IMG/VR virus record: IMGVR_UViG_3300025030_000050
Location: 32,001 to 96,000 of that record
Strand: one strand, 5' to 3'
DNA from: a virus
DNA: 64,000 nucleotides
Below, piece by piece: positions 12,940-61,579 of the stretch; positions within the stretch are counted from its first letter, which is position 1; every line of letters starts with the position of its first letter. The translations under genes and the position numbers were made by a program. The notes beneath the pieces are model-generated. The model was not told the DNA's origin, did not search any database, and saw nothing but the letters and a program-made list of their open reading frames with translations.

Positions 12940-12941
12940 AA

Positions 12942-13178
12942 ATGAAAATTTTATGTATTAAAGATGTTATAATGCAGGATGGAGAAATTGCTTTTTATAA
13001 AAATAAATCATACTTTACCTCATTCGATCCAGATAAAATAAATTTTAATATTATTGACCATGTTGGGTTGTTTGCGGTTAATAGTGAAATATCCTTAGAA
13101 CATAATATGACAAGACATTTTTTAAAAGAACATTTTTCATTGGATAAACATGAAGATAAGACAGTTATAGTGGAGTAA
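12942..13178 (+). CDS. hypothetical protein
   Basis: SD GGAG; MKILCIKDV. Confidence 0.6.
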   Translation: MKILCIKDVIMQDGEIAFYKNKSYFTSFDPDKINFNIIDHVGLFAVNSEISLEHNMTRHFLKEHFSLDKHEDKTVIVE

Positions 13179-13180
13179 AA

Positions 13181-13699
13181 ATGAAAATCGTTATAATCTT
13201 AAATGGTTATCCACGTAGTGGTAAAGATAGCTTTGCCAAATTTATAGGCCAGGCTTTGTTAGATAAAGGCGTACAAACCGATATTGTCAGTTCTGTATGT
13301 AATGTTAAAGATGCGGCAAAAATTTTGGGTTGGGATGGCGAAAAAACAGAAGTAAATAGAAAAGCTTTGTCTGATTTAAAAGATTTGTCTACAAAATATT
13401 GGGAAGGCCCATTCAATTTAATGTCAAATTGTGTCATGAAGATGAAAGAAAATCATTGCTTCGTATTCATGATTAGAGAACCAGAAGAAATTGAAAAATT
13501 TGTAGCTAGATTTCCACAATCAGTTTCGGTATTTATGAAAAGAGATGAGGCGAAAATAGATTGTCTTAATCACGCCGATCAAAGCGTAGAAAATTATATT
13601 TATGATTATTACATTTACAATAACGAAGATTTAAAAAATTTATCAACTCAAGCACAGTTATTAATAGAAAGGATAATTTATTATGGACAAACTAGATAA
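13181..13699 (+). CDS. deoxynucleoside monophosphate kinase-like P-loop protein
   Basis: NGYPRSGKD, K..A..LGWDG.K, RE..E, NHAD, YD..I.N. Confidence 0.75.
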   Translation: MKIVIILNGYPRSGKDSFAKFIGQALLDKGVQTDIVSSVCNVKDAAKILGWDGEKTEVNRKALSDLKDLSTKYWEGPFNLMSNCVMKMKENHCFVFMIREPEEIEKFVARFPQSVSVFMKRDEAKIDCLNHADQSVENYIYDYYIYNNEDLKNLSTQAQLLIERIIYYGQTR

Positions 13700-33528: not shown

Positions 33529-33932
33529 ACTTCTTCATCCTCAACCAAGTCCAGTTCCTTCTGTAGCTCGCCCAGACACTTATTAGCCCATTTAGCAAAC
33601 ACAGGACTGCCATAAAATAATTTGAGTTTATTTTCATCTGTACAAGGTATTGACTCCCCATTTTTTTGCATCAATGTCCACGTCTCAATTTGATAGCAGA
33701 TAATGGCATCATTAAACTTCATCATGATATCATCATTACCATCAACATCAATTACACTGTCCATTCTTCTTGTAAGAGTGTTGGGAATATATTTCTGTTT
33801 TGACTTAAGACCTAATTTTTTTCTAATTTCTTGCATTTTTTCATCAGGAATAAGCCTGAAATTAACACTCTCAGTTTTATTTTCATCCCAATAAAATTCC
33901 CGTGATGGGTTCAAACATTCCAAATCCCACAT
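33519..33932 (-). CDS. tail assembly chaperone gpG
   Basis: Between tail tube and TMP; I.TW...G..IPCT.ENK; ends EVKN*. Confidence 0.8.
   Translation of the reverse strand: MWDLECLNPSREFYWDENKTESVNFRLIPDEKMQEIRKKLGLKSKQKYIPNTLTRRMDSVIDVDGNDDIMMKFNDAIICYQIETWTLMQKNGESIPCTDENKLKLFYGSPVFAKWANKCLGELQKELDLVEDEEVKN
33522..33528 (-). other. programmed -1 frameshift site A AAA AAC
   Basis: GTA AAA AAC TAA at the end of gpG; the -1 frame is open to 33184. Confidence 0.8.
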
Positions 33933-34677
33933 AAATTTTTCTCTCCCTTTTTATGTTTCTCTTTATGGCACTTCTTACAGAATGTTTGCCCATTGCCAAC
34001 ATTCCAAAGTTCACCACAATTTTCAGCTTCTTCTATTGTCTTAATCTCGTTTTCTTTTATTATCTTAGCAAATTCTTTAATATGATGAGCGTTTAGATCA
34101 CCGTTACCTCTAATAAGACACTTTTCACATGTAAAATCATCTCTGATAAAAACAAGATTTCTCCATTCTTTATATTTATCGAGCTTTCTTATTCTTTTTA
34201 CTAAACTAGTAATTCCACCTTTCCAATTAGGATTTTTATCTCCATTCTTTTGCTTCACTAATTTACTTATTTTTAATTTATGTTCTTCAGTAAATTTTTT
34301 ACCTAAATGAGAATCACTTATTTTCTTTTTACTTTCTTCTGTATGAGTCTTACCTAATAAAGAATTGCTAATTTTATTTTTGTCTCTTCGGTATGATGTT
34401 TCCCATAAAAGGGATTTCCTTCACCTACAAGACTAATTTTCAAAGCAACACTTATCTTTTTATTATGGATCTCTGGCCTATTTTTATTATAGTGCCCAGA
34501 GATATATTTATTCCAAACTAATTTCCATCTATCAAAGGAAACATGTTCTCCACAACCACAAGAATATAATGGAGACATTTTATTTTTTAAATTATCCAAA
34601 TGTCCTTTTATAAACTTATGCCTTTTATTTGTTACAATTTCACCACAACCACACAAGCAAAATCTAATATCACCCAT
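33911..34677 (-). mobile_element. NUMOD3/HNH homing endonuclease, frameshifted in an A-run at about 34377-34381
   Basis: CLCGCG, NPFYGKHHTEETK, NPNWKGG, RDDFTCEKC, HHIK, NGQTFCKKCH; length 3n+2. Confidence 0.8.
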
Positions 34678-34711
34678 TTTTAATATCTCTGTAATATCAC
34701 TGATTATAAAA

Positions 34712-34765
34712 TAATAGGCAACAAGTTCAGAATACTTGCTTTCGGTTGGCCAACCTAGCCCATTA
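34712..34765 (-). ncRNA. three-way-junction RNA motif copy A (HNH leader)
   Basis: UAAUGGGC-UA-GGUU(GGCC)AACC-GAA-AGCAAG(UAUUCUGAA)CUUGUU-GCCUAUUA. Confidence 0.65.
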
Positions 34766-34773
34766 CAATCAAA

Positions 34774-35190
34774 TTATACCAACGTCATAAAACCAGAAAC
34801 TTTGCAAGAAAATGAAGCAGTAACTAACTGTGATTTATCAGCATCTACGTTCCATTCCGTAATCCAGACATAGGATAACGGGTTAGTAGTTGATGGAGTA
34901 TAATAACTGTTATCGTCTATATAGAAACGGATATCACTTACACTCGTGTTACTAGCATTGTAATTTCGTAATGAGGTCTGACCGTTAGCATCAGTACCGT
35001 CAAACAATCCGTTAAAACTAATAGTCCCACCATCACGTAAACCCGGACGAAATTGTTTCCATTCATCTCCAAATGCTGAAGTTTCCAACAGATCTGTGGT
35101 GACGCCTGACATTGACCACGTTCCCATTAAAGAAATACTATTTGATCCTAAAGTTACTTTACCATCAGCACCTCTATAAGATGTCGCCAT
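34774..35190 (-). CDS. major tail tube protein
   Basis: ET..FGD.W....GL.DG.T....G; T.S.S.KVSG; upstream of the chaperones. Confidence 0.85.
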   Translation of the reverse strand: MATSYRGADGKVTLGSNSISLMGTWSMSGVTTDLLETSAFGDEWKQFRPGLRDGGTISFNGLFDGTDANGQTSLRNYNASNTSVSDIRFYIDDNSYYTPSTTNPLSYVWITEWNVDADKSQLVTASFSCKVSGFMTLV

Positions 35191-35193
35191 ATT

Positions 35194-35850
35194 TTAACCC
35201 TCCATATTTTGCAATTTCTTCACATGTTTATATAAAGCATATGTTGACCAATTTATTTCTAAAGTTGACAAATGCCCTATATCTATAGTCGTATCACAAA
35301 AAATACGATACCCATTCTGTTTCAATTTATAACAAAAACCAATATCTTCTCCAACAAGACTTCCTTTTTCATCTCTACCAAATTCAAACCAAGGAGGGTC
35401 TATCTTCAAAAAGACCTCAGTATTATACAATACGCAACCACATCCAGTAGCATCAATTTCGAGCAACTCTTTTCTTTCTCTCGAATCTAAAATATCCTCA
35501 TCTGAAACATGGACATACATACTTGGAATCCCGCGATATAAAATACAATCAAATCCCGGATACCTACGATGAACTATAGAAGAAGTTACATCTTTATTAT
35601 GAGATAAAAGTTTTTCAATCGTATCTACAGGGAATACCTGATCACTGTCCATCATCAATAAATGAGTACAACCATTTTCTAAAGCTCTTTCAACTAGCTG
35701 ATTTCTAACATCAGCAATATTCATTCCACTATATTGAGGCCTTAGATATAAAAAACTCGGCTTTCGCATCATTACAAAACTATCAAGAAACGCTGCTGGG
35801 ACCGTTGGGTCTACTAATGGAATTCCTATAGCAAGTTTAATTTTTTCCAT
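35194..35850 (-). CDS. GT-A glycosyltransferase (paralogue 3)
   Basis: RNQLV..AL, THLLMMDSD, GCGC.L, GEDIGFC, GH. Confidence 0.85.
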   Translation of the reverse strand: MEKIKLAIGIPLVDPTVPAAFLDSFVMMRKPSFLYLRPQYSGMNIADVRNQLVERALENGCTHLLMMDSDQVFPVDTIEKLLSHNKDVTSSIVHRRYPGFDCILYRGIPSMYVHVSDEDILDSRERKELLEIDATGCGCVLYNTEVFLKIDPPWFEFGRDEKGSLVGEDIGFCYKLKQNGYRIFCDTTIDIGHLSTLEINWSTYALYKHVKKLQNMEG

Positions 35851-35863
35851 AATTTCTCCCGAA

Positions 35864-36655
35864 TTATAGGTTATTCAAAAACTCTTCAATTTCTTTATCT
35901 GTTTTATTTTGTTTCTTCAAAAGATAAAGACACTTATTTCTTTTTAATAGTTTATCAACATTTAAGCTTTTAACTGTTGATTCATGTGCTTGATGTAAAG
36001 TCAGTAGATCATCTCTTAAGATAAATCCTATCCCACTTTTTTCTACATCGTCCCTAAAGGCATCATCATCATAAGCATAGCCCTTACTAAATCTTTCATC
36101 AAATCCACCCATCTTTAAATAATTTTCTTTTGATAAACAACTACAAAAATGATATCTCGCATTCCTAAATTTTGTATGTTGATACCAAGAATGATGTTCG
36201 TATTTAAAACTATCAAAGGAATCAGAGAATAATTTAAATTTGTGGATATTCTCACAACCGCATACTATATAAGAATTTGGTTGATTGTCAAAGATCTTGT
36301 CAAACCCGGCCAGAATATTTTCTTTATGAAAAACTTCTGGATTTGTTATGCAAATATATTCACCGCTCGCTTTAGAAACACCTAAATTAAATAATGGAGC
36401 GGGGTTATGATTATTGATAAAATTAGATTCTACCAACTTGATATCAATATACTTATCGGCATTTTTAGTAAAAAACTTTAATATTTCTTTTAATTTATGG
36501 TGTTCTTTACCATCCTCTCTGTTTTTAACATCTTCAACAATTATTACTTCATAATCATCTCTATTTTTATAATGATGATAGTAAGACAACAATGTATTAT
36601 GCAGCCATCCAGCCCTTTTTATATACGGGAATACTATTGAATATTTTTTACTCAT
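35864..36655 (-). CDS. GT2-family glycosyltransferase
   Basis: YSIVFP, YEVIIVED, NLGV..A.GEY, GGFDERF..GYAYDD. Confidence 0.85.
   Translation of the reverse strand: MSKKYSIVFPYIKRAGWLHNTLLSYYHHYKNRDDYEVIIVEDVKNREDGKEHHKLKEILKFFTKNADKYIDIKLVESNFINNHNPAPLFNLGVSKASGEYICITNPEVFHKENILAGFDKIFDNQPNSYIVCGCENIHKFKLFSDSFDSFKYEHHSWYQHTKFRNARYHFCSCLSKENYLKMGGFDERFSKGYAYDDDAFRDDVEKSGIGFILRDDLLTLHQAHESTVKSLNVDKLLKRNKCLYLLKKQNKTDKEIEEFLNNL
36453..36480 (-). promoter_or_regulatory. sigma28-type promoter (internal, upstream of tail tube)
   Basis: TAAA-GTTTTTTACTAAAAAT-GCCGATAA. Confidence 0.65.
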
Positions 36656-37472
36656 TAATACCAGCCATTAATTTTAGAAGAAAATTGTCAAAGGTTTCAA
36701 TATTTTCTTGTGTTACAATATTTTCGTATTCACTAGTTTTTTCAGCACCAGCAAACCAATGAATACCAACCGTATTCTCAAATAAATTAGAGTGCTTGCC
36801 AAAAATTAATTCAATTTGTCTCCAGTCAAATGGATAGACAGTTGTAAATGGAATATTATCAATTTTACATTCATGTTTTTCTGAAAAATCTTCAGTATTT
36901 TTTTTGTTATATTTAAAAAAAGAAGTAAATAAATCTCTCCCAATTGTTTGATATTGCAAATTATCTATTTTATTTATAGAGTTTACACACATATCAAACA
37001 ATTGTTTAAAAAATTTATTATCCCCAGCACTTGCCAAAAATCCAATATTATGACAATTATAGTGATAACAAATTAGAGTATCTTTATTTTCAAATTTATT
37101 AAAAATTTTATCTACAGAAGAAGTATAAAAAATATCAAAGTCTGACCACAAGCCCCCAACAGATGAAAGCAAACTCAATCTTAATAAATCCGACTTATGA
37201 ACTTCAGATATTTCTTTGGCTAATTTAAAATCAGTTTCAACCAAAGACACATTTTTTATATTAGCCAAATCATCAAAATAGTCCTTCCCTACAGGGCAAT
37301 ATTTTTTTTGTTCAAACCCATCCCATTTAATTTCTTTATTAATATTTTTAGGATAGTAAACAAAAATTTGCCAATCCGGGTTTAATTTAGAAAAAGAAAC
37401 AACTGTCAAATATTTCATATAAGACAATGGTTTATTTTTACCCCAATATAGATGAATTTTCTTAGGTATCAT
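36648..37472 (-). CDS. GT32-like DxD glycosyltransferase
   Basis: IPKKIHLYWG, SDLLRL..L...GGLWSDFD, GIHW. Confidence 0.85.
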   Translation of the reverse strand: MIPKKIHLYWGKNKPLSYMKYLTVVSFSKLNPDWQIFVYYPKNINKEIKWDGFEQKKYCPVGKDYFDDLANIKNVSLVETDFKLAKEISEVHKSDLLRLSLLSSVGGLWSDFDIFYTSSVDKIFNKFENKDTLICYHYNCHNIGFLASAGDNKFFKQLFDMCVNSINKIDNLQYQTIGRDLFTSFFKYNKKNTEDFSEKHECKIDNIPFTTVYPFDWRQIELIFGKHSNLFENTVGIHWFAGAEKTSEYENIVTQENIETFDNFLLKLMAGINE

Positions 37473-38017
37473 TTATTCTCCCAAATCGCATACGTATTTT
37501 TGTCAATATTATCTGTAGATGTTTTAAACCCAAATTTTTTAAATACTCTATCTGGTATAAAACATTTGTGCTCTTGATATTTGTTTATTCCAGTGCCTTT
37601 CCAATCTGAATCTGGAGAGTTCTCCATCCATTCAAATATATTATTTTTCTGACCCAACCAATTGATGTTAATATTGTCAAAGAAATGAGATGGTGTATAA
37701 ATAATAACCTTTTTTCTAGCCATTCTTTTCATCTTTTTTATAAGATTATAAGCTTCTTTAAAATCAAGATGCTCTAATATATCTAAGGCAATTACAACAT
37801 CAATTGTGTTTATTCCAAATTCATATTTTGTTATATCGGCACAAATAGCATTTACGCCCAGCAACTTAATTTTATTTATATAAGGCTCATATATATCAAA
37901 TCCAACAAAAGATTTACACCTTAACCCCATAACCTCTTGCAATACCCCGCATCCAAGGCTTGAAACAGAATCGTTTCCAGTTATTTCTTTTTGAACTAAA
38001 TCACCTAGCCAATTCAT
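37469..38017 (-). CDS. class I SAM-dependent methyltransferase
   Basis: LGCG, GFDI, ADI, DVV..LD.LEHL, TP, H. Confidence 0.8.
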   Translation of the reverse strand: MNWLGDLVQKEITGNDSVSSLGCGVLQEVMGLRCKSFVGFDIYEPYINKIKLLGVNAICADITKYEFGINTIDVVIALDILEHLDFKEAYNLIKKMKRMARKKVIIYTPSHFFDNININWLGQKNNIFEWMENSPDSDWKGTGINKYQEHKCFIPDRVFKKFGFKTSTDNIDKNTYAIWENK

Positions 38018-38025
38018 AGTAAGCC

Positions 38026-39087
38026 TTAAATAAAATTAATATGTTTTGGTTTATCTTTGATACAATAATTTATGAATTCATTTTTAGCTTTATAAAGACA
38101 AGGATTTTTACATCTCAGATCAGGATTATGAGATTTAAACATATTGATCTTGTCATCACTCATCCACAAATCTTTGAACGATTGATTTTTTATAGAACCA
38201 ATCTTCCCTTTTTTATTATACGCAAGTGTACAGCAAGTATAGACATTATAATCAGCCCCTACATAAGCAAGTAAATCTTTTGTAGGACAAAAATTATAGT
38301 CTTGAACTCCCTCAAACATGTCTTTCATTCTATCATTAAAAAGATTAAAAACAGTAAAATTATCATCAGATAGTTCTTGAGCTTTTTTAGCCAACTCAAA
38401 AGAATCTTCATATATGCCATCAAAATAAGAATAGCCATCTGGGGTAAAAGCAGCAGATATTCTAAAATTATCTACTCCAATTTCTTTAAATAATTTTGCT
38501 GCATCAAATATTTCTTTGTAATTATATTTGTTAACAACAAATCCTGCTCCTATAACACTATCTTTTTTGTATTTAACTAAATTTTTAATATTTTCAATAG
38601 TCCTGAAAAACATCTTTTTATTTACTTTTCTAAAAGATGAATATGTTTCTGGTGTAGCACAATCAACTGATATTCTAACCCAAGCTGAATCGCTTAAAAT
38701 CTTACACAATTCATCATCTAACGCCATGCCATTTGAAACTAGAGCTAGTTCTAGTTTTCTATCTAATATATCTCTGAATATATTTTTAATTTTTGGGTGG
38801 ACAAGAGGCTCTCCTCCTCCGGTTATTTGAATAGCTCTTACCCCCATATCAACACAAGAATCTAACGTTTCAACAATTTTTTCATAAGAAAGTAAGTCTT
38901 TATCATTAAATATTTCATTTGATTTATTCCCCTTCAAGCGATACGCACATGTTAAACAAGAATTGTTACACTTATTTGACGGAATAATCTGGACTTGCAA
39001 TGGATTTGGTTGTTCTCCATCTTTAAACTGAATTAATTTGTCAAAGCTATGAATAATTTTGTATGGTGAATATTCCTCTTTAATCAT
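38026..39087 (-). CDS. radical SAM protein with SPASM/twitch domain
   Basis: CNNSCLTC, TGGGEP, SNG, RISVD, C-terminal C...YTCC...IG.I...C..C. Confidence 0.92.
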   Translation of the reverse strand: MIKEEYSPYKIIHSFDKLIQFKDGEQPNPLQVQIIPSNKCNNSCLTCAYRLKGNKSNEIFNDKDLLSYEKIVETLDSCVDMGVRAIQITGGGEPLVHPKIKNIFRDILDRKLELALVSNGMALDDELCKILSDSAWVRISVDCATPETYSSFRKVNKKMFFRTIENIKNLVKYKKDSVIGAGFVVNKYNYKEIFDAAKLFKEIGVDNFRISAAFTPDGYSYFDGIYEDSFELAKKAQELSDDNFTVFNLFNDRMKDMFEGVQDYNFCPTKDLLAYVGADYNVYTCCTLAYNKKGKIGSIKNQSFKDLWMSDDKINMFKSHNPDLRCKNPCLYKAKNEFINYCIKDKPKHINFI

Positions 39088-39713
39088 TTTTCTCCCCTAT
39101 TCCAAATTGCCGAAAACTCTTTATCTACTTCAACTGTCCCCAAATGTTTATTTGTACAACTCGTATCTATAAATATTTTATAGCCAGCTTGTTTAACTAA
39201 ATTACAAAAATAAACGTCTTCACCAATATCGAATTGAATGTTAGGATCTGGATTTTTCATAAAAGAAAAATAAGGCTTTTTAATTTTGTTGAAAACATCC
39301 ATATTAACTAATAAACATGCTGCGCCAACACTATCTACTTCAATTAACTCATTCTCTGGGACATTATCTATCGTTTTATAATTGTTTATCATACCATTAA
39401 AAGCACAGACTGAATATGGTGTAGTCCTCATAAAAGACAACCCAGATACAATAGGTAAGTTGTGTGAAAGTAACTTAATTATTGTATCTGGGTTATGTCG
39501 ATGGTCTACATCAAGAAAAAGTATGTGCGTACAGTTGTATTTTTGTGCGGCGTCAACTAATTGATTTCTCATTGATGCCAGTCCTTGATAACCACCAGCT
39601 CTAAAAAATACGTGATTATCAGGCTTGCGCATAGCCATGAACGATTCAAAAAATTCAACTGGTACTGTATTGTGTGTTAATGGCACTCCTATAGCTAATT
39701 TTACGTCTTTCAT
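39084..39713 (-). CDS. GT-A glycosyltransferase (paralogue 2)
   Basis: RNQLV..A, THILFLDVD, GAACLL, GEDVYFC, HLG. Confidence 0.85.
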   Translation of the reverse strand: MKDVKLAIGVPLTHNTVPVEFFESFMAMRKPDNHVFFRAGGYQGLASMRNQLVDAAQKYNCTHILFLDVDHRHNPDTIIKLLSHNLPIVSGLSFMRTTPYSVCAFNGMINNYKTIDNVPENELIEVDSVGAACLLVNMDVFNKIKKPYFSFMKNPDPNIQFDIGEDVYFCNLVKQAGYKIFIDTSCTNKHLGTVEVDKEFSAIWNRGEK

Positions 39714-39744
39714 TTTTCTCCCGATAATGAATGTTTTATTTTTC

Positions 39745-39771
39745 TTATCGGAAAATTATAAAAAGACTTTA
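39745..39771 (-). promoter_or_regulatory. sigma28-type promoter for the glycosyltransferase cluster
   Basis: TAAA-GTCTTTTTATAATTT-TCCGATAA. Confidence 0.7.
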
Positions 39772-40188
39772 ACTTTTTTGAATAACAACGTTAAATTCGA
39801 TTGAGTAAACCCAAGATTCATCTTCTTCTATCCAAAACGGGCCAAATATATTCTTTAACCCCATTCTATGACTATTATATCCTGTTATAGATAATTTATA
39901 ATTATTAAACTGAGTAATTAAATAGCCTAAAATCGTACCTGCTTCAGAAGAAGAATTTATTGTATTAGAATGAATATTAAATTGGCAAGTGATGTCATCA
40001 ATCGCTTGTGTCTGATCAGAAACTGAATTAAAAAAACAGTCATAAGAATGGTTAAATAAAAAATATCTAACAAATGGAAAGACTGGAACTTGTGGGGCCT
40101 TTACAAAATATAACCTGCTACCTATAGATGTATTAAAATTACTAGAAGCCGTTCCCCTTGAATAAATTGCAGTAGAAATAGAATTCAT
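39769..40188 (-). CDS. tail terminator / completion protein (DUF3168-like)
   Basis: AIY...R.Y...AP....P.V, QF.I.S; synteny. Confidence 0.75.
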   Translation of the reverse strand: MNSISTAIYSRGTASSNFNTSIGSRLYFVKAPQVPVFPFVRYFLFNHSYDCFFNSVSDQTQAIDDITCQFNIHSNTINSSSEAGTILGYLITQFNNYKLSITGYNSHRMGLKNIFGPFWIEEDESWVYSIEFNVVIQKS

Positions 40189-40655
40189 TATTTTCCTAAA
40201 TATTTTTTAAATATATTTAAAATTTCAGATGTATTTTGCTTTAACTGTGGTCTCAAAAATGGCCTTTTAGCAGAATACCATGTCAGGCCCAACTCATGTC
40301 TGACACCGTTATCATTTGTAGTTCCAACTCTCCCAAAAATTGCTTGGATATTGTTACCATAAATAATTGGGCTTATTTTGCTATCTCCACTTTCTGCCCC
40401 ACCACTTTCTCCCCCAGATGTCACCCAAGAAATAGACCCGTTCAAATCACCAGTATCTGGAGCAGGAGGAACACCAGGGACAGAAGCTTGATGCAAACCT
40501 TGTCCTGGGACTTTAGATGGCCACATTCTGCCCGTACCTTCAATCATAGAATCTCTAACATTAGCTGTCACGGCGACACAGCTTTCTTTAATTGCTTCTT
40601 CGCCAATAGTTTTAACAGCAGCCAAAACCTTGTCGTCAAACCAAACAGCTTTCAT
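40188..40655 (-). CDS. HK97 gp10-like tail completion protein
   Basis: H.AS.PG.PPA.DTG.L..SI, VGT, E.G, RPFLRP. Confidence 0.85.
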   Translation of the reverse strand: MKAVWFDDKVLAAVKTIGEEAIKESCVAVTANVRDSMIEGTGRMWPSKVPGQGLHQASVPGVPPAPDTGDLNGSISWVTSGGESGGAESGDSKISPIIYGNNIQAIFGRVGTTNDNGVRHELGLTWYSAKRPFLRPQLKQNTSEILNIFKKYLGK

Positions 40656-40969
40656 TCTACTTTCTTCAATTCTAATGATAGCGTAATATTCTTATTGGCG
40701 AGATTATCTACAAAATTTATTTGATATAATATACCATCACAAAATGCCCTATCTTTCTCTGTTACAACAATATCTTTTGGAAAATCACAGTTAAAATAAT
40801 GCGTAGAAATAGTTTTTGTCGAATCGTTGACAAATCTTTCCCTGGCTTTAAAAGCAATAAGAGTCCCTTTTAAAGTCTTAATGCCATACCAAGACGTTGT
40901 GTAACCACCCATTCCATCAGAAACAGATGTCTGTCTATGTATTTCTAATTTGACTTTATGGCCAACCAT
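40652..40969 (-). CDS. head closure / head-tail adaptor
   Basis: DGMGG....W, E......STH, DR......Y.I..V. Confidence 0.85.
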   Translation of the reverse strand: MVGHKVKLEIHRQTSVSDGMGGYTTSWYGIKTLKGTLIAFKARERFVNDSTKTISTHYFNCDFPKDIVVTEKDRAFCDGILYQINFVDNLANKNITLSLELKKVE

Positions 40970-40971
40970 TA

Positions 40972-42129
40972 CTATACCTTGCGTTTTTTATATCTTTCAA
41001 GAATCATTTTAGCTTCTTTTGGAAAATCTCCAGCTTCAAAAACAGATAAAACAGAATTATTACCAACCCTATATTGAGTTAGGCCAAACCCATCTTCATT
41101 CCTTCTATTGTAAAAATACTTCACCAATATTTTTACCGCCAGTTGCAAATTTTTCGGCATATTGTCAGCAGAATACCCAGCAGTATAATCAACATAGATA
41201 TTTCTAAAACCTTCTGGCCATCCACCAAATTTCCGAATTTGAGCTTTATCTAAATCAACATAAAAACTATCTTCATGATCGTCTGTTTTATATAAATCAA
41301 CCCAATTACTGTCTATCACATTTAGCCCATACACAGGAATCAATTCTGTGGACTTAACGCTACCGTAGACAGACGAAAGAATTTCTGCTTCCCATCCATT
41401 GCCTAAGGCGTTAATCGCGGCTACAACAGCCGTTACAGTAGTATTAGAGGCAAATGTAACAGAAGTATCGGCAGTACCATCTAAAACAAGTCTTAACCCA
41501 GTTGTAGTAACAGAGACAGTTGCTGTTGATGTTGAGTTAGTGTTTCTGACTTTCATTACTCCAATTATCCATACCGCAACTCTATCTACTGCTGTTATGG
41601 GATAATTGTTTAAATTAATTATAGAACCGCCGCTACTATCGTACCTTTCCAATCTATAACTTGTTTCTTCAAATACGCGTCTACAATAATCAGAAACAAG
41701 TCCTTCAACATCTTCTCTGATTATATCAACTATCAGAGTTGGATCTCCGGCTTCAATATCTGAGACTATAGTTTGAGCCGCACTTTTATTGCTATCAAGT
41801 CCAAGTGTAAGTCCGGCGTCAGAACTTGTATGAGTATAAGCAATTGTCTTGCCCGTTCCAGCATTTATAGTAAAAAGTCTTGTTGTAGAAGAATATGATA
41901 CAGCAAATGTTATTACACCTGTGCCGGTCAAAGTAGTGTTTGCGTTCATTTGAGTCTGAAGATGAGAGGCTAGCCCAGATCCATCATATGTACCATCACT
42001 CAAATCTATATTTACTGGACCACCACTAGAACTAGTAAGATTAAGAGTGTTATTCGCTTTAGTTATTGTAAAATATCCTTTATCAATATCTAAAAATGTA
42101 AGACAATCATCTAAACTTACAATGGCCAT
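40972..42129 (-). CDS. head-tail connector (gp6/gp15-like) with two inserted domains
   Basis: YCRR.F, YPI..V, NI.V.YTAGY...P..L..A, L..YK core plus two insertions. Confidence 0.8.
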   Translation of the reverse strand: MAIVSLDDCLTFLDIDKGYFTITKANNTLNLTSSSGGPVNIDLSDGTYDGSGLASHLQTQMNANTTLTGTGVITFAVSYSSTTRLFTINAGTGKTIAYTHTSSDAGLTLGLDSNKSAAQTIVSDIEAGDPTLIVDIIREDVEGLVSDYCRRVFEETSYRLERYDSSGGSIINLNNYPITAVDRVAVWIIGVMKVRNTNSTSTATVSVTTTGLRLVLDGTADTSVTFASNTTVTAVVAAINALGNGWEAEILSSVYGSVKSTELIPVYGLNVIDSNWVDLYKTDDHEDSFYVDLDKAQIRKFGGWPEGFRNIYVDYTAGYSADNMPKNLQLAVKILVKYFYNRRNEDGFGLTQYRVGNNSVLSVFEAGDFPKEAKMILERYKKRKV

Positions 42130-42141
42130 AATTTTACCTAA

Positions 42142-42456
42142 TTATTCTTGATCTACAAATTTATTATAAAGACTCATGTGCTCTTCAGTCAAAAAATCTT
42201 TTTCTTTACAAACTTTTAATCTGCCTTTAATTATATTTAAAACATTTTTAGGAATATAAAATTCTTTTTCAGAATCATTAGTCCATTTAACTTCTCCATC
42301 TTCTTGATGGGTTATTGAGTACAAGTCATGCTCATCTTCAGTAAAAGACAAATATCTTAGACAATCTTGATACATACCATAAATAGTCATGTCCACTTCT
42401 TGAGGCAATAAATTTAAAAGCAAGATCCTATCAAAAACACTCAACTTAATCAACAT
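42142..42456 (-). CDS. hypothetical protein
   Basis: L.V..R..LLN.LP...LSFT..E...W...LY.KFV; SD GGGAG. Confidence 0.7.
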   Translation of the reverse strand: MLIKLSVFDRILLLNLLPQEVDMTIYGMYQDCLRYLSFTEDEHDLYSITHQEDGEVKWTNDSEKEFYIPKNVLNIIKGRLKVCKEKDFLTEEHMSLYNKFVDQE

Positions 42457-42477
42457 TTAAATCTCTCCCGTCTAAAG

Positions 42478-42870
42478 TTATGGCGAAACTGAAATCGTGA
42501 CTTTCTTTTCAGGGTTAACGTAGAAATTGATTGGCTTAATGATACGGTCATGAGCCACCCATTTTACCTCAGTTGAATAATCACTTTCGTAACCATAGAC
42601 ATCATAAGCTGTGGCGGCGAAATAATAGGTTGTTCCAACAACAAGATCCCCTACTGAGCCCTCAACATGACCATCCACCATTGTGCCCATTTTCTGGTCA
42701 ACATCTAAAGTGTATTTTTTTGACGCTGTGCCATAGTAGATCTTATACCCGGCAAGGCTGGTCTCTGCATTTGGAGACCAAGAGAACCTTGCCTCGGCAG
42801 CAAAAGCATAACTGGATAAGAATAAAACAAAAATAGTCGCAAAACAAATTTTCTTTAACATAATTTTCAC
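42478..42870 (-). CDS. secreted fibronectin type III domain protein
   Basis: Signal peptide ending AFA|AE; W.PN.E..LAGYKIYYG, TYYFAATAYD..G.ES.YS.E. Confidence 0.85.
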   Translation of the reverse strand: MKIMLKKICFATIFVLFLSSYAFAAEARFSWSPNAETSLAGYKIYYGTASKKYTLDVDQKMGTMVDGHVEGSVGDLVVGTTYYFAATAYDVYGYESDYSTEVKWVAHDRIIKPINFYVNPEKKVTISVSP

Positions 42871-43478
42871 CTTGGATTAAATCTCTCCCAATATGTTTGA
42901 TCTATTTCAATTGTACCTAAATGTTTGTTATCACAACCGGTATCACAATATATTTTATATCCAGCCTGTTTAGCCTTTAAACAAAATGCAAAATCTTCAC
43001 TTACAACACCGTCGCCAAACCTATAATTCATTTCGAACCAAGGATAATTAATTTCTTTAAAAACACTGACATCAACCAATAATGAAGCAGCTCCAATAGC
43101 ATCTACTTCAATTAATTCATTTTTATTCCATTGTATTATATTCTTGAATTTATCACCATCTTGTTCGAATATAATTGGGTCATATGGATAAGAACGCCTA
43201 AAAGATAAACCAGATACAATATCTTTATCATGTGACAATAATTTAAGGATGGTATCGGAATGATGTCTATGATCTGTATCAAGGAACAATATATGGCTAA
43301 ATGTCCCATCTTTAAGAACGGCATGAATTATTGAATTTCGTTGATCGTCTACTCTTCCCCTATTCCCAATTATTACACTATGTTGGGGTTTCTTCAACTC
43401 TATCCATGATTCAAAAAATTTGGTCGATAAAAAATCCCAGTTGCAAGGAAGACCAATGGCGATGTTAATATTACCCAT
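42867..43478 (-). CDS. GT-A glycosyltransferase (paralogue 1)
   Basis: RN.II..., SHILFLDTD, GAASLL, SEDFAFC, HLG. Confidence 0.85.
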   Translation of the reverse strand: MGNINIAIGLPCNWDFLSTKFFESWIELKKPQHSVIIGNRGRVDDQRNSIIHAVLKDGTFSHILFLDTDHRHHSDTILKLLSHDKDIVSGLSFRRSYPYDPIIFEQDGDKFKNIIQWNKNELIEVDAIGAASLLVDVSVFKEINYPWFEMNYRFGDGVVSEDFAFCLKAKQAGYKIYCDTGCDNKHLGTIEIDQTYWERFNPR

Positions 43479-44206
43479 TACAAACACCAGCTAATTGCTA
43501 GTTCCGGGAAGTTTAATTTATGAGGCAATCCTTCTCTTATAATAAATTTATCTCTTGCTAATGCTGCATCTTTAGCAGTTTTAAATGTTGTTTTGTTAAA
43601 TACTGTCTTCCCATCATTTCTTACAATTGCAGAAAAAGATTTTCTCTCCGGTTTATAAGACACCCCACAATATCCAGAAGTGTTATTCGACTGTAATAAT
43701 CTTTTATTAAATCCATTCTCTCTTATAGTTATAAATCTACAATTCCAAGGAGCATAAGGACCATCATTATCGATTCGATCTAATTGAAGACCTTCTTCCC
43801 ATCCATTATTTAAACACCAATCATTAAACACGGGGAATTCAAACACCCATTCACTACATACATAAATTCCACGCCCACCATAACTGTCATACGATCCATT
43901 ATTCACATTTGAACATCTACTATTGATATGTTTCCAAAGTGAATAAATTTTATTCCTTGATTTTCTTCCACCCATCCCATGAATTGTGGATCTCTCTACT
44001 AATTTCTCTATTTTAAGACAGCCGCAAGATTGTGATTTCCCACTCCTCAAAACTTGTAAATTAACTAATTTAATTGTCTCTTTATCACATAAACATTTTA
44101 CAACGACTAGCCTACCTTGCCTCTGACTATATGGCAAATCAGCATAAATTACAACCCATCTTCCATAAACGCATCCCAAAACATATTCTTTTACATTATT
44201 ACTCAT
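43478..44206 (-). mobile_element. HNH-AP2 homing endonuclease
   Basis: SCGC, RC......Y..YGGRGI.VC.EW, LDRIDNDG.Y.P.NCR, N.SGY.GV, AA.ARD, LNFP; SD AGGAGG. Confidence 0.9.
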
Positions 44207-44231
44207 AGTATTCCTCCTATACAATCCATAA

Positions 44232-44292
44232 TATATTGAGAGAAGAGGTGGATTAAATCTCTTGTCGGGTGCGCTCCCTATCCCTCAATATA
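44232..44292 (-). ncRNA. three-way-junction RNA motif copy B (HNH leader)
   Basis: UAUAUUGAGGGA-UA-GGG(AGCGCA)CCC-GACA-AGAG(AUUUAAUCCAC)CUCU-UCUCUCAAUAUA. Confidence 0.65.
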
Positions 44293-44300
44293 ACTATATT

Positions 44301-44618
44301 CTAACTTGCGTAAACCACTAATCCTTTGATTACATGGAGATTTGTTACGGCACCACTGGCAAAATCAGCACCAGCAGTTGAACCGACTGTATAGGCTGCT
44401 ACATTTAAACTTGTCCCCATATCGGCTGAACCCACCACGATCAGTTTATCAGCGGACTGATCCCAAAGCATGTATTTGCCAGTAGTATCGCCATAACATT
44501 TAAAATCCAAACCAGTAGCGTCTTCCCCTAAAACAATACCAGTTGTTGCACCAGTACCTACTTTCTTAAAAATTAGGCTTCCACTTGACCATTCTGATTT
44601 AACTAAAGTAACGGGCAT
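44301..44618 (-). CDS. head fibre / decoration-like protein
   Basis: G.D.TG.D...YGDT.G.YMLWD.SAD.L motif; position after capsid genes. Confidence 0.6.
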   Translation of the reverse strand: MPVTLVKSEWSSGSLIFKKVGTGATTGIVLGEDATGLDFKCYGDTTGKYMLWDQSADKLIVVGSADMGTSLNVAAYTVGSTAGADFASGAVTNLHVIKGLVVYAS

Positions 44619-44669
44619 AATTATATCCTCCTAATCCATACAAATGTTTATCAGCGGTGGTTCCGCATT

Positions 44670-44891
44670 CTACTTCTTATTCTTGCCTTTCTTAACTTTT
44701 GGGTCTTTTACCATCTTATCTTTTATCGGAAAGTCTAACGACTTATTCTCTATTTTAGAATCGAGAATAACAACGATACCTTTACTTTCCAAATCCAATG
44801 CTTTCTGTTTTAATATAGTCATTTTCATTGGGGCTTTATTCCCCATCCACTCCCCAATGAATTCTACTTTTACATATTCTAATTTATTCAT
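44670..44891 (-). CDS. small head-completion protein
   Basis: A..L...G...P..DKMVK pattern typical downstream of HK97 capsids. Confidence 0.55.
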   Translation of the reverse strand: MNKLEYVKVEFIGEWMGNKAPMKMTILKQKALDLESKGIVVILDSKIENKSLDFPIKDKMVKDPKVKKGKNKK

Positions 44892-44909
44892 TTTCTCCCT
44901 GCTTTAAAG

Positions 44910-44941
44910 ACAAAGCTTGAGTGAAATATCTCAAGCTTTGT
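44910..44941 (-). terminator. terminator after capsid/decoration genes
   Basis: ACAAAGCTTGAG-N8-CTCAAGCTTTGT. Confidence 0.65.
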
Positions 44942-44954
44942 TTAAATCAATAAA

Positions 44955-45440
44955 TTAAACAATGGCTGTTGGTTTTACTTCTTGGATAATCTTACCACCA
45001 CCAAGAATACATACAATTGTCCCATCTACTGGGTCATCAGTAGTTTCATCAGTGGCGAGCCTTGCATATTTATCAGTACCAGAAAGTCTAGAACTATCGA
45101 TCTCAATCGCATAAATTTGGTCGCTACCAGCAGTAGTTGTGAACCCATACGCAGTAGCTGTCTGCATATCAGACCAAGTATCACCACTAGTACAAGTCCA
45201 ATAATTAAATGCTACAGTTGTCGCAGTTGAAGGCGTAACATCATCACAACTTTCAACACTGATACGTGCAACACCAGTAGAACCAGCCGCTTTTTGAATT
45301 ACCCAAAGACACTGTTCGTATTTGCCAAGATTAACAATATCCGTATTAGGACTACCATTAAACAAATCCTCATAAGCTGCTTGACTAGCACTAGGCATGG
45401 CGTTTACAACATGAACATTCTGAAAAAGTCTTCCACCCAT
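44955..45440 (-). CDS. capsid decoration / cement protein
   Basis: Immediately after MCP; beta-rich; D.V....Y, Y.RL. Confidence 0.65.
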   Translation of the reverse strand: MGGRLFQNVHVVNAMPSASQAAYEDLFNGSPNTDIVNLGKYEQCLWVIQKAAGSTGVARISVESCDDVTPSTATTVAFNYWTCTSGDTWSDMQTATAYGFTTTAGSDQIYAIEIDSSRLSGTDKYARLATDETTDDPVDGTIVCILGGGKIIQEVKPTAIV

Positions 45441-45484
45441 AATTTATACCTCCATATTTATATTATAAAATTATACCCCCTACG

Positions 45485-45569
45485 ATATTAATAAAATGTG
45501 GAAGCTAAGACGGGAGATTTCTTAGCTTATCAACTTTAGTTTAAAACCAAAGCCTATCCACACTAATAT
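45485..45569 (-). ncRNA. three-way-junction RNA motif copy C (no HNH downstream)
   Basis: UGUGGA-UA-GGCUUUGGU(UUUAA)ACUAAAGUU-GAUA-AGCUAAGA(AAUCUCCCG)UCUUAGCU-UCCACA. Confidence 0.6.
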
Positions 45570-45571
45570 TA

Positions 45572-46852
45572 TTAACTTCTTGAAGTAATTACAATAAACG
45601 GAGAAATTGTGTCAGAACTGGCCTCTGGAGGCACCAATGCCTGCGGCATCCAGCTTTGACCAGCAACGTAAAAGCGCCACCGATATGCCATCTGATCAAC
45701 GTCGAATTTTAGGTGCATAGAAGTGTCAAAACCAATACCACCATCACCACTAAGCATACCGAGTAGATACTGTTTCATGTCAGCAAGAATCAAATCGCCA
45801 GCAGTGCCTAAAGCTTTTGCATGGTGGCTAAAAACAACAGGGAGCCCAAACAACGTATTATACGGTTTCCCACTAGCCCCACCCGCTGGCATAAATACAG
45901 GGACACCAGCGGTGCCTACAGTTAGAGACATGCTTGCAAGCTGAGGAAGAGTATTGGGGTTGGCAATCCAAACAGCATTAGATGGATTAATGCAACGCGC
46001 ATACATTTTAATAACATTTTCCCAAACAATGGTCGTAGCTGGTTGACCAGTCTCAGCAGTGATAGAGACAAGACAAGGGGCAGAGAGTAACCCCTGTGGC
46101 TGGCCAGCGCCAGTACCTTTAAGGATAACCCTGTTCATTTCATAATTAAAACCATCAGTAAACCCTTCACGCAATATATTCTCCATACTCATAGGAGAAA
46201 AGCGAAGAATTTCATCACTAGCATAGGCAAGAGCTGTTACTTTATGAAGATTTAGATTAATATAACCAAACTTGATATTCTTTTCAGTAAGAGACCCTTC
46301 CTCTTCAGTCCATTGCCAAGCAACGTTACCATATACCAAGTTCCCAGATTTATCGAAACCATTGACATAAGGAATTTTTACAGAATTTGACTGCATAGGA
46401 ATTTGAGTACACCGACCCATCAACTCATTCTGTTCTTTAGCCGCAACAAGAAGGTTTTGCCGAAATTCTTCAGGAACCAGATAACCACCGGCTTCGCCGT
46501 CACCAACATTCTGAGAAGGAGAACCAGCAGCTTTAATGGTTGCACAATTATCTTCCCATTTAGAAAGTTCTGGAGAGAGTTTACGATATCCAGACTGAGC
46601 AGCTTTAGCAACATCAGTTGCAAAGTGGGCAAGTGTTTTAAACCCAGCCTTCTTATCTTTTTCTGCTTCACTCTGACCAACCACAATACGTTTTTCAATC
46701 GGCTCTACTGCGGCTTTAATTTTTGCATCAATTTCAAGAGCAAGCGATTCTTTAAACTTAAGAACAGCGCCTTCAACTACGGAAGCAGCACCCTTGCTGA
46801 TAACTTCATTAAGTTCATCAATAGTCATCTTACTTTTAGTTTCTTCAGCCAT
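45572..46852 (-). CDS. major capsid protein, HK97 fold
   Basis: Delta domain, GGYLVPEE, W..E, GTG.GQP.G, LFG.PV. Confidence 0.95.
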   Translation of the reverse strand: MAEETKSKMTIDELNEVISKGAASVVEGAVLKFKESLALEIDAKIKAAVEPIEKRIVVGQSEAEKDKKAGFKTLAHFATDVAKAAQSGYRKLSPELSKWEDNCATIKAAGSPSQNVGDGEAGGYLVPEEFRQNLLVAAKEQNELMGRCTQIPMQSNSVKIPYVNGFDKSGNLVYGNVAWQWTEEEGSLTEKNIKFGYINLNLHKVTALAYASDEILRFSPMSMENILREGFTDGFNYEMNRVILKGTGAGQPQGLLSAPCLVSITAETGQPATTIVWENVIKMYARCINPSNAVWIANPNTLPQLASMSLTVGTAGVPVFMPAGGASGKPYNTLFGLPVVFSHHAKALGTAGDLILADMKQYLLGMLSGDGGIGFDTSMHLKFDVDQMAYRWRFYVAGQSWMPQALVPPEASSDTISPFIVITSRS

Positions 46853-46925
46853 TTTATTTTATCCTCCAAATTTTATTTTATGTTTAATAATCGCCTAATA
46901 TCTCTTGTATGATATCTCTAGCAAT

Positions 46926-49391: not shown

Positions 49392-50229
49392 TATATAATC
49401 CCTCTAAAAAATCTTTTTTAAATTTATAAAATTGTTCCGGCGTAGTTATTTTACCATATATTTTATGGAATAATTTATGTTCATCATTGTTTAATGTCAC
49501 AACATTATTAATATCAAATAAAATATTTTTAAATTTTATCCAATTGTCTTTATTAATATTATTTTCTCTAATTATTGTTGACAAAGATTTTAAATGATGA
49601 TGGATTAATTTGCTCCTATTATTTTTATTCAATATAATTGATTTATATTCATCTCTTTTAAAACACCTTTCTCTATTTTTAATATAACCAGAAGACTTCC
49701 TTATTAAATCTTGCAAAGATGTTAACCCGCCCTTCCATTGTGGACTATTTTCTTTAATATACTTACCAACCCTAGCACAATCTGTACATTTTTTAGAACA
49801 ATATTTTCTTTTACTTCCACGCCTGTATAAATTCAGCATCCGTTTATTAAAAATTTTATATTCTTTGCCACAATATTCACAAATTAAAAATATTGTTGAG
49901 ACATCTTTTTTATTATTATCATAACATATACGAGAACAATACTTTTGATTAGATTTATTACTTTTGGGTTTATACGTCTTACCACAATATTCACAAATTT
50001 TATTTTCTATAAATATTTTATCGAAGGCATAACAATAATGAGAACAATATTTCCTTCCATCTTTTATTTCAGAATTCCTTGCTTTATAGGCTATACCGCA
50101 ATATCCACAAATAAGGCAAACACTATTATTTTTAATAGATTTTTTATTTTTACAAATAGAAGAACAATATTTTTTTCTTTTGATACTAGTTTCAAATTCT
50201 ATAGAACAAAATTCACATTTTTTAATCAT
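49375..50229 (-). mobile_element. HNH-like endonuclease with repeated CxxC-YCSxxC zinc fingers
   Basis: Four CxxC...KYCSxxC units, SPQWKGG, HH, N..TL...H..FH..YG. Confidence 0.8.
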
Positions 50230-61502: not shown

Positions 61503-61579
61503 TGGGGTGAAGTGTGAGAATCGAACTCACTAGAACCTGATTCACAGTCAGGAGGATCAACCGTTTTCCTTACTCCACC
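61503..61579 (-). tRNA. tRNA-His(GTG) with encoded G-1 and CCA
   Basis: GGTGGAGT...CCTGA-CTGTGAA-TCAGG...GTGAG-TTCGATT-CTCAC-ACTTCAC-C-CCA. Confidence 0.9.

Follow-up and report, generated by a model that had tools for sequence, protein, structure and literature searches.

Of the selfish genes of phages, those for free-standing homing endonucleases belong to the most common, and to our knowledge the control of their toxic products outside the T-even phages is largely unknown. In T-even phages, RNA structures that sequester the Shine-Dalgarno (SD) sequence control I-TevI, segB and mobE, and hairpins of this kind are reviewed for I-TevI, I-TevII, I-TevIII, segB and mobE of Aeh1 (PMC2988022). 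The closest described RNA family is the Rfam motif int-alpA (RF02996), which is typed as 'Gene; sRNA' and not as cis-regulatory. It was reportedly among the candidate motifs of Weinberg et al. 2017. The term 'alpA' is absent from the main text of PMC5737381.

Here, we analysed 64,000 nucleotides of viral DNA (positions 32,001 to 96,000 of IMG/VR record IMGVR_UViG_3300025030_000050; hereafter the window), in which a first-pass annotation had noticed three structured RNA elements, two of them leading homing endonuclease genes.

Three copies of one three-way junction

The three elements, copies A, B and C, lie on the minus strand and are all built as P1-UA-P2-GANA-P3-P1'. The minimum-free-energy fold of each is this three-way junction, in agreement with the fold and the places initially given for them. 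Copy A (34711..34766) is composed of P1 (34766-34758/34719-34711), UA (34757-34756), P2 (34755-34744), GAAA (34743-34740) and P3 (34739-34721). The corresponding parts of copy B (44232..44292) are P1 (44292-44281/44243-44232), UA (44280-44279), P2 (44278-44267), GACA (44266-44263) and P3 (44262-44244). Copy C (45495..45564) carries a long P2 (45554-45532), with P1 at 45564-45557/45502-45495, UA at 45556-45555, GAUA at 45531-45528 and P3 at 45527-45503. The P3 loops read AUUCUGA (copy A), AUUUAAUCCAC (copy B) and AAUCUCCCG (copy C), and the P2 loops, GGCC, GCGC and UUUAAA, are self-complementary, as had been noted before. P2 loops are palindromic in 28 of 39 copies of the motif.

The folding z-scores are -1.96, -2.08 and -3.45 for copies A, B and C, with 9, 5 and 0 of 200 shuffles, respectively, folding as well as the native sequence. 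Orthologues of copy C with compensatory changes are present in the relatives L001, L002, L003 and L079. A descriptor consisting of P1 of at least 6 bp, UA, a GG-started P2, GANA, P3 and P1' found three loci in the whole 113,349-base genome compared to a mean of 0.16 in 100 dinucleotide shuffles, one of which reached three, a lenient test as the descriptor was composed after the copies had been seen.

Membership in the int-alpA family

Copy A scores 40.6 bits against int-alpA (gathering threshold 35.8, E 1.1e-5); that it was missed by a whole-window Rfam run at the gathering threshold and by a genome search is a filter effect. Copies B and C had no Rfam match at E <= 10 in a 1.4-kb search, and neither did 11 related copies in six searched loci match RF02996 at this cut-off. 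The Rfam model misses most phage copies, i.e. two of three here and 11 of 11 in the related loci; a broader one would improve phage annotation and aid in marking the boundaries of nuclease cassettes. A covariance model made in this analysis, R1, unites copies A, B and C (48.3, 44.3 and 36.1 bits) with a family of 68 matches in 59 sources.

Copies in Enterobacter phage Tyrion (RF02996 44.0 bits, R1 21.9 bits) and Pseudomonas phage PfAn1 (25.5 and 35.7 bits) score with both models and thereby form a bridge between them. Moreover, P2 of the Tyrion copy (GGGUAGCUCCC) has the same sequence as P2 of five R1 members. The junction typical of int-alpA, with UA joining P1 to P2 and GAAA(A) joining P2 to P3, is present, its columns being invariant in 54 aligned copies. 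In copies A, B and C alike, the P3 loop is matched by a complementary 3' tail, as in the Rfam consensus (loop CCuU, tail AgGG). Judged by these sequence features, copies A, B and C are members of the int-alpA motif family (RF02996), with B and C as divergent ones. The first-pass annotation had seen no named family, which holds for Rfam matches of copies B and C and not for copy A; since it had also named a match to a characterised Rfam family as removing novelty, the score of copy A against this orphan family takes away part of it.

In the R1 alignment, 92.2% of paired cells can pair compared to 64.9% in shuffles, percentages that are inflated because the loci, which are phylogenetically non-independent, were gathered with a pattern and descriptor requiring core and stems. 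Both sides have changed in 14 of 18 pairs, and the covariation score of 0.678 compares to 0.173 in shuffled and 0.08-0.15 in slid alignments. The covariation initially seen among the three copies thus extends well past this genome. The core, GGA-UA-GG ... CC-GAYA-AG ... YU-UCC, is nearly invariant across loci of 29% to 64% GC, while P1 ranges from 5 to 12 bp. A tRNA or tRNA-like element was rejected as a candidate given this variable P1 length and the Rfam tRNA model, which matches the window only at 61506-61578 and 3611-3755.

The P3 loop and its two downstream sites

Downstream of the junction, two sites are complementary to the variable P3 loop, site 1 at 5-12 nt after P1' and site 2 overlapping the Shine-Dalgarno region; the start codon is found 24-39 nt after P1' in most copies. 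Watson-Crick runs of at least five connect the loop to its own site 1 in 23 of 40 copies (cross-paired control 6.7%) and to its own site 2 in 18 of 40 (control 8.9%). The observed mean loop-site complementarity was reached in none of 2000 permutations, which supports at the family level the loop pairing near the next ribosome-binding site that had been proposed from the three copies. Median predicted duplex energies are -6.6 kcal/mol for site 1 and -6.5 kcal/mol for site 2, and among 45 copies the stronger pairing is with site 2 in 21, with site 1 in 20 and equal in 4. Homologous leaders show a concerted change of all three partners, the loop UUCUGA occurring with UCAG and CAGAG, and the loop UUCCGA with UCGGA and CGGAG.

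Copy A takes part in this change. Its site 1, UCAG (34700..34703, minus strand as all sites below), is complementary to CUGA of the loop and aligns to the conserved int-alpA 3' tail, and its site 2, CAGAG (34687..34691), is complementary to UUCUG. The latter pairing is modest (5 bp, one G-U) and located in a weak SD region 10 nt before the AUG at 34677. In copy B, UGGAUUG (44222..44228) forms 7 bp with UAAUCCA of the loop as site 1, and the Shine-Dalgarno sequence AGGAGG (44213..44218) forms only 4 bp with it. Judging from the sequence by eye, this SD could also pair with the 3' strand of P3 (CCUCU). Site 1 of copy C, GGGGG (45476..45480), pairs with CUCCC of the loop, and site 2, GGAGG (45449..45453), which is the SD of a 161-aa gene, pairs with (A)UCUCC; the AUG (45440) follows 54 nt after P1' and the spacer thus exceeds the family norm. 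All pairings listed at first pass were recovered, those of copies B and C being the proximal site 1 and that of copy A (UUCUG/CAGAG) the distal site 2.

Genes and signals around the motif

Each of the three copies begins 7-8 nt past the stop codon of an upstream ORF. These ORFs encode a major capsid protein (PF05065, 1.4e-42), a major tail protein (PHROG matches near 5e-7) and a 105-aa product with no family match; of the structural genes initially named, the capsid and tail genes are supported, while the 'head fibre', which is the 105-aa ORF, is unconfirmed. The genes upstream of motif copies in general are mostly those for capsid, tail, portal and terminase.

Downstream, copy A leads a gene (33911..34677, minus strand) split into a NUMOD3 ORF (34354-34677) and a separate HNH ORF (33911-34258), which together match a single 288-aa nuclease of a relative. 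Copy B leads an HNH-AP2 homing endonuclease gene (43478..44206, minus strand; likely start ATG 44206; phrog_374, 1.3e-52) whose counterpart behind the orthologous leader in L079 shares 48% identity with it. The two copies thus precede unrelated HNH types, as had been recognised, with the refinement that NUMOD3 and HNH behind copy A are separate ORFs. Domain and PHROG annotation gave no nuclease signature for the 161-aa gene behind copy C.

Across the family, 27 of 45 downstream ORFs contain homing-endonuclease domains of three catalytic types, HNH, GIY-YIG and endonuclease VII. Copies precede nuclease genes in four of four cases in G001 and two of three in G002, and two cultured phages carry an annotated 'putative HNH endonuclease' directly behind the motif. 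A clear nuclease domain is lacking in 18 of the 45 genes (17 with none, one marginal), among them genes for a tail assembly chaperone and an Ant-like protein as well as the 161-aa gene. An R1 search found no leader at three of the five nuclease loci of this genome. The proposed link to free-standing homing endonuclease genes holds well outside this genome, and the element is not bound to the HNH type, given the GIY-YIG and endonuclease-VII-like genes and the nuclease-free copy C. Some leaders are identical up to the AUG yet precede unrelated nucleases.

In 22 of 53 unique copies, compared to 5.4% in the background, the UA junction is preceded by a -10-like hexamer whose end lies 10-17 nt away, so that many copies could start a transcript at P1. 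Copy A has a TATAAT (34773..34778, minus strand) 6 nt upstream of P1, overlapping the tail-tube stop codon (34776-34774); this single box is not distinguishable from chance in the AT-rich window, the enrichment being a family-level one. U-rich tails follow P1' in 15 of 52 family copies, and in 2 of 25 where the locus GC is at least 0.45. An intrinsic (Rho-independent) terminator was rejected, given these few U-rich tails and a terminator scan that called none of the three window copies.

Proposed function

Taken together, phages carry the motif as 5' leader of a small expression module, usually one with a free-standing homing endonuclease gene. We consider it probable that it acts in cis to throttle translation of the nuclease. 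Pairing of the P3 loop with site 2 would mask the ribosome-binding site and keep translation low; alternatively, site 1 would act as a decoy that captures the loop and leaves the ribosome-binding site free. The leader would thereby hold nuclease translation at a low or conditional rate, on transcripts reading through from the highly expressed structural gene upstream as well as on those started at its own promoter. The conserved junction could be the binding site of a factor. Of the functions suggested at first pass, a translational silencer fits this anatomy, and a ribozyme or processing element gains no support, no Rfam ribozyme family scoring at the three copies. A consideration against the leader reading is that, if site 1 always captured the loop first during transcription, there would be no repression at all. 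Copy C shows that the module can persist before an ordinary gene, where it may be left over from a nuclease since lost or may form an empty slot. If the leader masks the ribosome-binding site, an orphan Rfam motif would gain a function, and phages that differ widely in base composition would prove to use one regulatory part for HNH, GIY-YIG and endonuclease-VII-type genes.

A more elaborate form of this model, which we regard as rather unlikely, is a portable, bistable 'expression slot' of -10 promoter, three-way-junction leader, decoy site and SD that is kept behind conserved structural genes. The AUG would be the precise point at which unrelated homing endonuclease ORFs are exchanged. A factor from host or phage would bind the invariant junction and switch the loop between decoy and SD, and the palindromic P2 loops would allow two copies of the same leader to pair by a kissing interaction, tying translation to transcript abundance. 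If true, it would provide function and mechanism for an orphan Rfam family and define a regulatory part that phage homing endonuclease cassettes have in common.

There is a small chance that the element works for the structural gene upstream, be it as a leaky terminator, 3'-end stabiliser or insulator, with nucleases merely inserting behind it. The position shortly past the stop codons and the predominance of structural genes upstream speak for this, as do relative L004, which has a plain hairpin and U run at the place of copy C, and the fold of copy C and its L003 orthologue, kept by compensatory changes without any nuclease. However, a stabiliser would have no need of an invariant junction or of a loop covarying with two downstream sites and the next SD, most copies lack a U tract, and the PfAn1 element follows a tRNA gene and a terminator-like U run instead of a structural gene.

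It also seems improbable that the junction is a sensor or catalytic core, i.e. either a switch that is riboswitch-like or binds a protein, or a site of self-cleavage or processing that parts the nuclease mRNA from the late transcript. The nearly invariant core would suit such a role, the balanced energies of the two loop pairings are as expected for an input-dependent switch, and the topology is reminiscent of a type I hammerhead; however, no ribozyme (E <= 10) or riboswitch family scores at copies A, B and C, and the sequences lack the hammerhead CUGANGA core. Nor does the gene context point to a ligand or protein, as the downstream nucleases are mutually unrelated. Least probable is an independent trans-acting small RNA that has a promoter of its own and ends after P1, as implied by the Rfam typing, for which the -10-like hexamers, the U-rich tails and the U run of the Rfam consensus would speak, but against which stand the scarcity of such tails at GC-rich loci, the missing terminator calls in the window, the fixed distance to the start codon and a loop that matches the SD of the neighbouring gene and not a distant target.

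Comparison with known systems

Type I hammerheads are arranged as stem I, junction, stem II hairpin, GAAA, stem III hairpin and stem I. The order of elements found here matches, but UA takes the place of the CUGANGA core and there is no Rfam hammerhead match. With int-alpA, the copies share the three-stem junction P1-UA-P2-GAAA(A)-P3-P1' and the 3' tail complementary to the P3 loop. They differ in the core, which is GGA-UA-GG/GAYA-AG/UU-CC in copies B, C and related copies and C-UA-G/GAAAA-G/CU-G in int-alpA, and in the second, SD-overlapping site, which falls outside the Rfam model. The context differs as well: int-alpA is named for its integrase and alpA neighbourhood, whereas the neighbours annotated here belong to a phage structural operon with homing endonuclease genes. 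As in the T-even hairpins, structured RNA leading a homing endonuclease gene would pair with the ribosome-binding site, presumably to keep a toxic nuclease low or delayed (PMC2988022). The T-even structures are simple, lineage-specific hairpins, escaped via a late promoter inside the structure (PMC2988022). The motif described here, in contrast, is a conserved three-way junction whose remote loop is accompanied by a decoy site. It is found before unrelated nucleases in many lineages of phages, and its promoter-like -10 box is located outside the fold, on the upstream side.

Results

Three minus-strand segments of the window, copies A (34766-34711), B (44292-44232) and C (45564-45495), each adopt a three-way junction as their minimum-free-energy structure, which confirms the look-alike folds proposed in the first-pass annotation. 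The order of parts is common to all three: a stem P1, the dinucleotide UA, a stem P2 that starts with GG, the junction sequence GAAA (A), GACA (B) or GAUA (C), a stem P3, and P1', the closing strand of P1. A descriptor of this architecture found three loci in the entire 113,349-base virus record, namely A, B and C, compared with a mean of 0.16 in 100 dinucleotide shuffles, one of which reached three; as the descriptor was composed after the fact, we regard this count as a first check only. Chance as the source of the three copies is ruled out by these shuffles together with the covariance-model search and the alignment controls described below. Each copy starts 7-8 nt after the stop codon of the upstream ORF. 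The ORFs upstream of A and C encode the major tail protein (34774-35190) and the major capsid protein (45572-46852), respectively, as expected from the earlier placement of all copies behind structural genes; this placement was not confirmed for the 105-aa ORF upstream of copy B (44301-44618), which is without family hits.

A megablast search with 12 kb of the window gave no match among GenBank phages. Searching IMG/VR with a pattern for the junction core returned at least 117 loci; about half of the 117 pattern-bearing loci listed carry the complete fold, the remainder being chance pattern matches. From 54 copies we built a covariance model, R1, which detects three copies in the window's own genome (G000), three and four in two related genomes (G002 and G001, respectively) and nothing more at E <= 1. 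In total, R1 yielded 68 matches from 59 sources, including some copies outside the seed and matches in four cultured phages of Aeromonas, Pseudomonas, Vibrio and Enterobacter hosts. The covariation suggested by the three window copies recurs in the model-fitted alignment, where standard pairs fill 92.2% of cells (64.9% when shuffled), 14 of 18 pairs show changes on both sides and the covariation score is 0.678 (0.173 when shuffled, 0.08-0.15 with the partners slid), figures that lean towards structure because the descriptor demanded stems, the alignment followed the model and related sequences were compared.

Orthologues of copy C lie behind the capsid gene in four related loci (L001, L002, L003 and L079), where all three stems have changed in a compensatory manner and the loop CUCCCG is conserved; copy C is a nuclease-free leader with a compensated fold. 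In a close relative whose capsid protein is 79% identical (L004), the place of copy C is taken by a plain G+C-rich hairpin that leads into a U-rich run (760-800), with another gene behind it. Thus, the copy C locus occurs in three states, i.e., plain hairpin, leader alone, and leader with nuclease. Neither joints nor a nuclease-free allele were seen in contigs of four groundwater/soil DNA runs that cover 43400-46900, and we base no conclusion on them.

Contrary to the first-pass annotation, a named family can be assigned. In a cmscan search, copy A aligned to the full length of the Rfam int-alpA model (RF02996) and scored 40.6 bits (gathering score 35.8; E 1.1e-5), and the consensus aligned to it has the same junction, with C-UA-G and GAAAA. 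This consensus also contains a conserved 3' tail, AgGG, which is complementary to the P3 loop CCuU of the model. Copy A was missed both by a gathering run of Rfam over the whole window, which gave two tRNAs and nothing else, and by an RF02996 search of the phage's own genome; we take both misses as a filter effect. Copies B and C had no RF02996 hit at E <= 10, nor had 11 related copies in six searched loci. Both models score a copy in Enterobacter phage Tyrion (RF02996, 44.0 bits; R1, 21.9 bits); the P2 hairpin of this copy also occurs unchanged in several R1 members. Another in Pseudomonas phage PfAn1 scores 25.5 bits with RF02996 and 35.7 with R1, and shows GAAAA and CU junctions as in int-alpA. 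Since these two copies bridge both models, we read the window copies as probable members of one broad family, of which the Rfam model would cover one corner; the RF02996-positive copies examined were copy A and the Tyrion copy only. E. coli CFT073 gave no int-alpA match.

The int-alpA family is presumably described in the supplements to the 2017 study by Weinberg and coworkers (PMC5737381), whose main text does not discuss it. A literature search for the family name found no functional study. Searching for homing endonucleases together with RNA structure, Shine-Dalgarno (SD) sequences or pseudoknots did not retrieve a description of this leader.

As a rival reading, the junction may form the core of a sensor or ribozyme, and could then be the input of a switch; Rfam searches of the copies and of six related loci brought no positive support for this. 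The Rfam scans of window and copies rule out a tRNA-like element and a hammerhead. The P2 of L003 (GGGGAACC) resembles the loop of helix 45 of 16S rRNA, a likeness confined to a single copy and judged a coincidence.

The variable P3 loop is complementary to two downstream stretches: site 1, located 5-12 nt past P1', and site 2, which overlaps the SD region of the following ORF. In most copies, this ORF has its start codon 24-39 nt past P1', most often at 31 nt. Among 40 distinct-loop copies, own-locus Watson-Crick runs of at least 5 were found at site 1 in 23 and at site 2 in 18, compared with 6.7% and 8.9%, respectively, for loops set against the tails of other loci, and none of 2000 permutations equalled the observed mean at either site. 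Predicted duplex energies are balanced (medians of -6.6 kcal/mol for site 1 and -6.5 kcal/mol for site 2), the stronger pairing falling to site 2 in 21 copies and to site 1 in 20, with four equal (n = 45). Copy A pairs CUGA/UCAG at site 1 and UUCUG/CAGAG at site 2; copy B can form 7 bp at site 1 but is limited to 4 bp at the SD; copy C, with an unusually long spacer, pairs CUCCC/GGGGG at site 1 and AUCUCC/GGAGGU at site 2. The pairing proposed earlier between the P3 loop and sequence near the next ribosome-binding site is therefore present in all three copies and backed, at family level, by the permutations. Homologous leaders show a concerted three-way change: copy A and G002 combine the loop UUCUGA with UCAG and CAGAG, while L053, L114 and L061 combine UUCCGA with UCGGA and CGGAG. 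In 15 of 40 leaders, a crude and uncontrolled classification puts site 2 into the loop of a small hairpin directly ahead of the AUG, suggesting that such a hairpin presents the SD in some leaders and is not universal.

For sequence statistics, duplicate loops or upstream sequences were merged, leaving 40, 52 or 53 unique copies depending on the statistic. In 22 of 53 unique copies (background 5.4%), among them 7 of the 19 from loci with a GC content of at least 0.5, the UA junction is preceded at a distance of 10-17 nt by the end of a -10-like hexamer, taken as any hexamer matching TATAAT with no more than one mismatch. Many copies could therefore begin a transcript at the first nucleotide of P1. 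The putative boxes in the window, TATAAT (34778-34773) before copy A and TAGAAT (44303-44298) before copy B, overlap the upstream stop codon; their basis is the family-level enrichment only, as such hexamers are inseparable from chance in this AT-rich DNA, and a sigma-70 scan of the window gave 58 sites where chance alone predicts 60.4. In copy C, a promoter-like TTAATA, 18 nt, TATAAT arrangement (10/12; 45462-45491, minus strand) is situated between site 1 and the SD, and transcripts starting there would thus be without the P3 loop; in this AT-rich region, such sites occur at chance frequency. A single contig, L135, carries two leaders (810-885 and 1534-1606, minus strand), both with a TTGACA box about 16-17 nt before the -10-like hexamer; one precedes a gene for an Ant-like anti-repressor, not a nuclease.

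A trans-acting sRNA, the type given to int-alpA by Rfam, and a terminator or stabiliser serving the upstream gene are both weakened by the scarcity of U tracts (2 of 25 copies outside AT-rich phages), by the terminator scan, which called none of the three window copies, and by the covariation of loop and SD; the first two of these rule out a terminator as such. The self-complementarity noted for the P2 loops extends to the family: 28 of 39 distinct hairpins have a 4-nt Watson-Crick palindrome in the apical loop (shuffled-loop mean 12.8; none of 500 shuffles reached 28), and P3 loops show no excess (12 of 51, compared with 10.8). The P2 palindromes would be compatible with loop-loop dimerisation.

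Of 45 callable downstream ORFs, 27 encode homing-endonuclease domains, one is marginal and 17 have none; for the other nine of the 54 seed copies, no downstream ORF with an SD-like stretch and a length of at least 50 aa could be called, and in one of these (L020) an endonuclease-VII-like ORF follows slightly further on in another frame. The nucleases comprise several HNH subfamilies with AP2, NUMOD or zinc-finger modules, GIY-YIG proteins with NUMOD3, and endonuclease-VII-like proteins, so that the leader is not tied to HNH genes specifically, as had been supposed. Because unrelated nuclease families share one leader, we rejected the idea that it is a nuclease target site. The 17 non-nuclease ORFs include a tail assembly chaperone, an Ant-like protein, the 161-aa gene of copy C with its L003 orthologue, and three members of phrog_6737, a 170-aa protein of unknown function. 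The latter stand right behind the leader on GC-rich contigs (L060 809-1318, L066 10212-10724 and L069 6653-7165), downstream of a 300-340-aa ORF, and could be nucleases of an as yet unrecognised family or cargo of a different kind. Upstream ORFs are chiefly capsid, major tail, portal and large terminase genes.

Copies A and B lead homing endonuclease genes, as annotated: in G000, two of three leader copies precede a nuclease and two of five nuclease loci have a leader. The corresponding numbers are 4/4 and 4/11 for G001, and 2/3 and 2/4 for G002. The leaderless HNH-type genes of G000 lie at window positions 49375-50229 (minus strand) and at 12421-13299 and 96023-96529 (both plus strand) of the genome; the start of the first directly follows an overlapping ORF and is not preceded by a folded element. 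Copy B and the leader behind the tail tube gene of G002 are identical from the P3 loop through the AUG, and the proteins are unrelated (E 0.12). Copy A and its G001 counterpart precede homologous nucleases at the same locus, and their leaders have different loop/site sets. Judged from these sequence comparisons, leader and ORF are modular units. Behind copy A, the gene (33911-34677, minus strand) consists of a 107-aa zinc-finger/NUMOD3 ORF and a 115-aa HNH ORF about 95 nt apart, which align with two parts (residues 1-167 and 173-265) of one 288-aa G001 protein from the same locus; it is therefore probably a broken or split homing endonuclease gene. Between the 161-aa and 105-aa genes lie 336 nt (44619-44954) with no listed ORF on the gene strand and a long hairpin (~44900-44946) seen as weak miRNA-model hits only; the equivalent G001 interval holds three tRNA genes (L002 7070-7614).

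Discussion

The leader is best explained as a cis-acting translational control element. The analysis shows directly that the P3 loop has covarying pairing potential, that the geometry is fixed and that the leader is associated with nuclease genes, and in these features of design the translational silencer proposed at first stands; that it represses, what site 1 does and what might act as a trigger are inferences. The three-way junction would present the P3 loop, which could mask the ribosome-binding region at site 2 or alternatively be held by site 1 as a decoy. Nuclease synthesis might thereby be kept low or conditional, both on read-through late transcripts and on those from the leader's own promoter.

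Structures that sequester the SD in nuclease leaders of T-even phages offer a precedent (PMC2988022). The T-even leaders, however, are simple lineage-specific hairpins with other promoter logic, unlike the three-way-junction leader described here.
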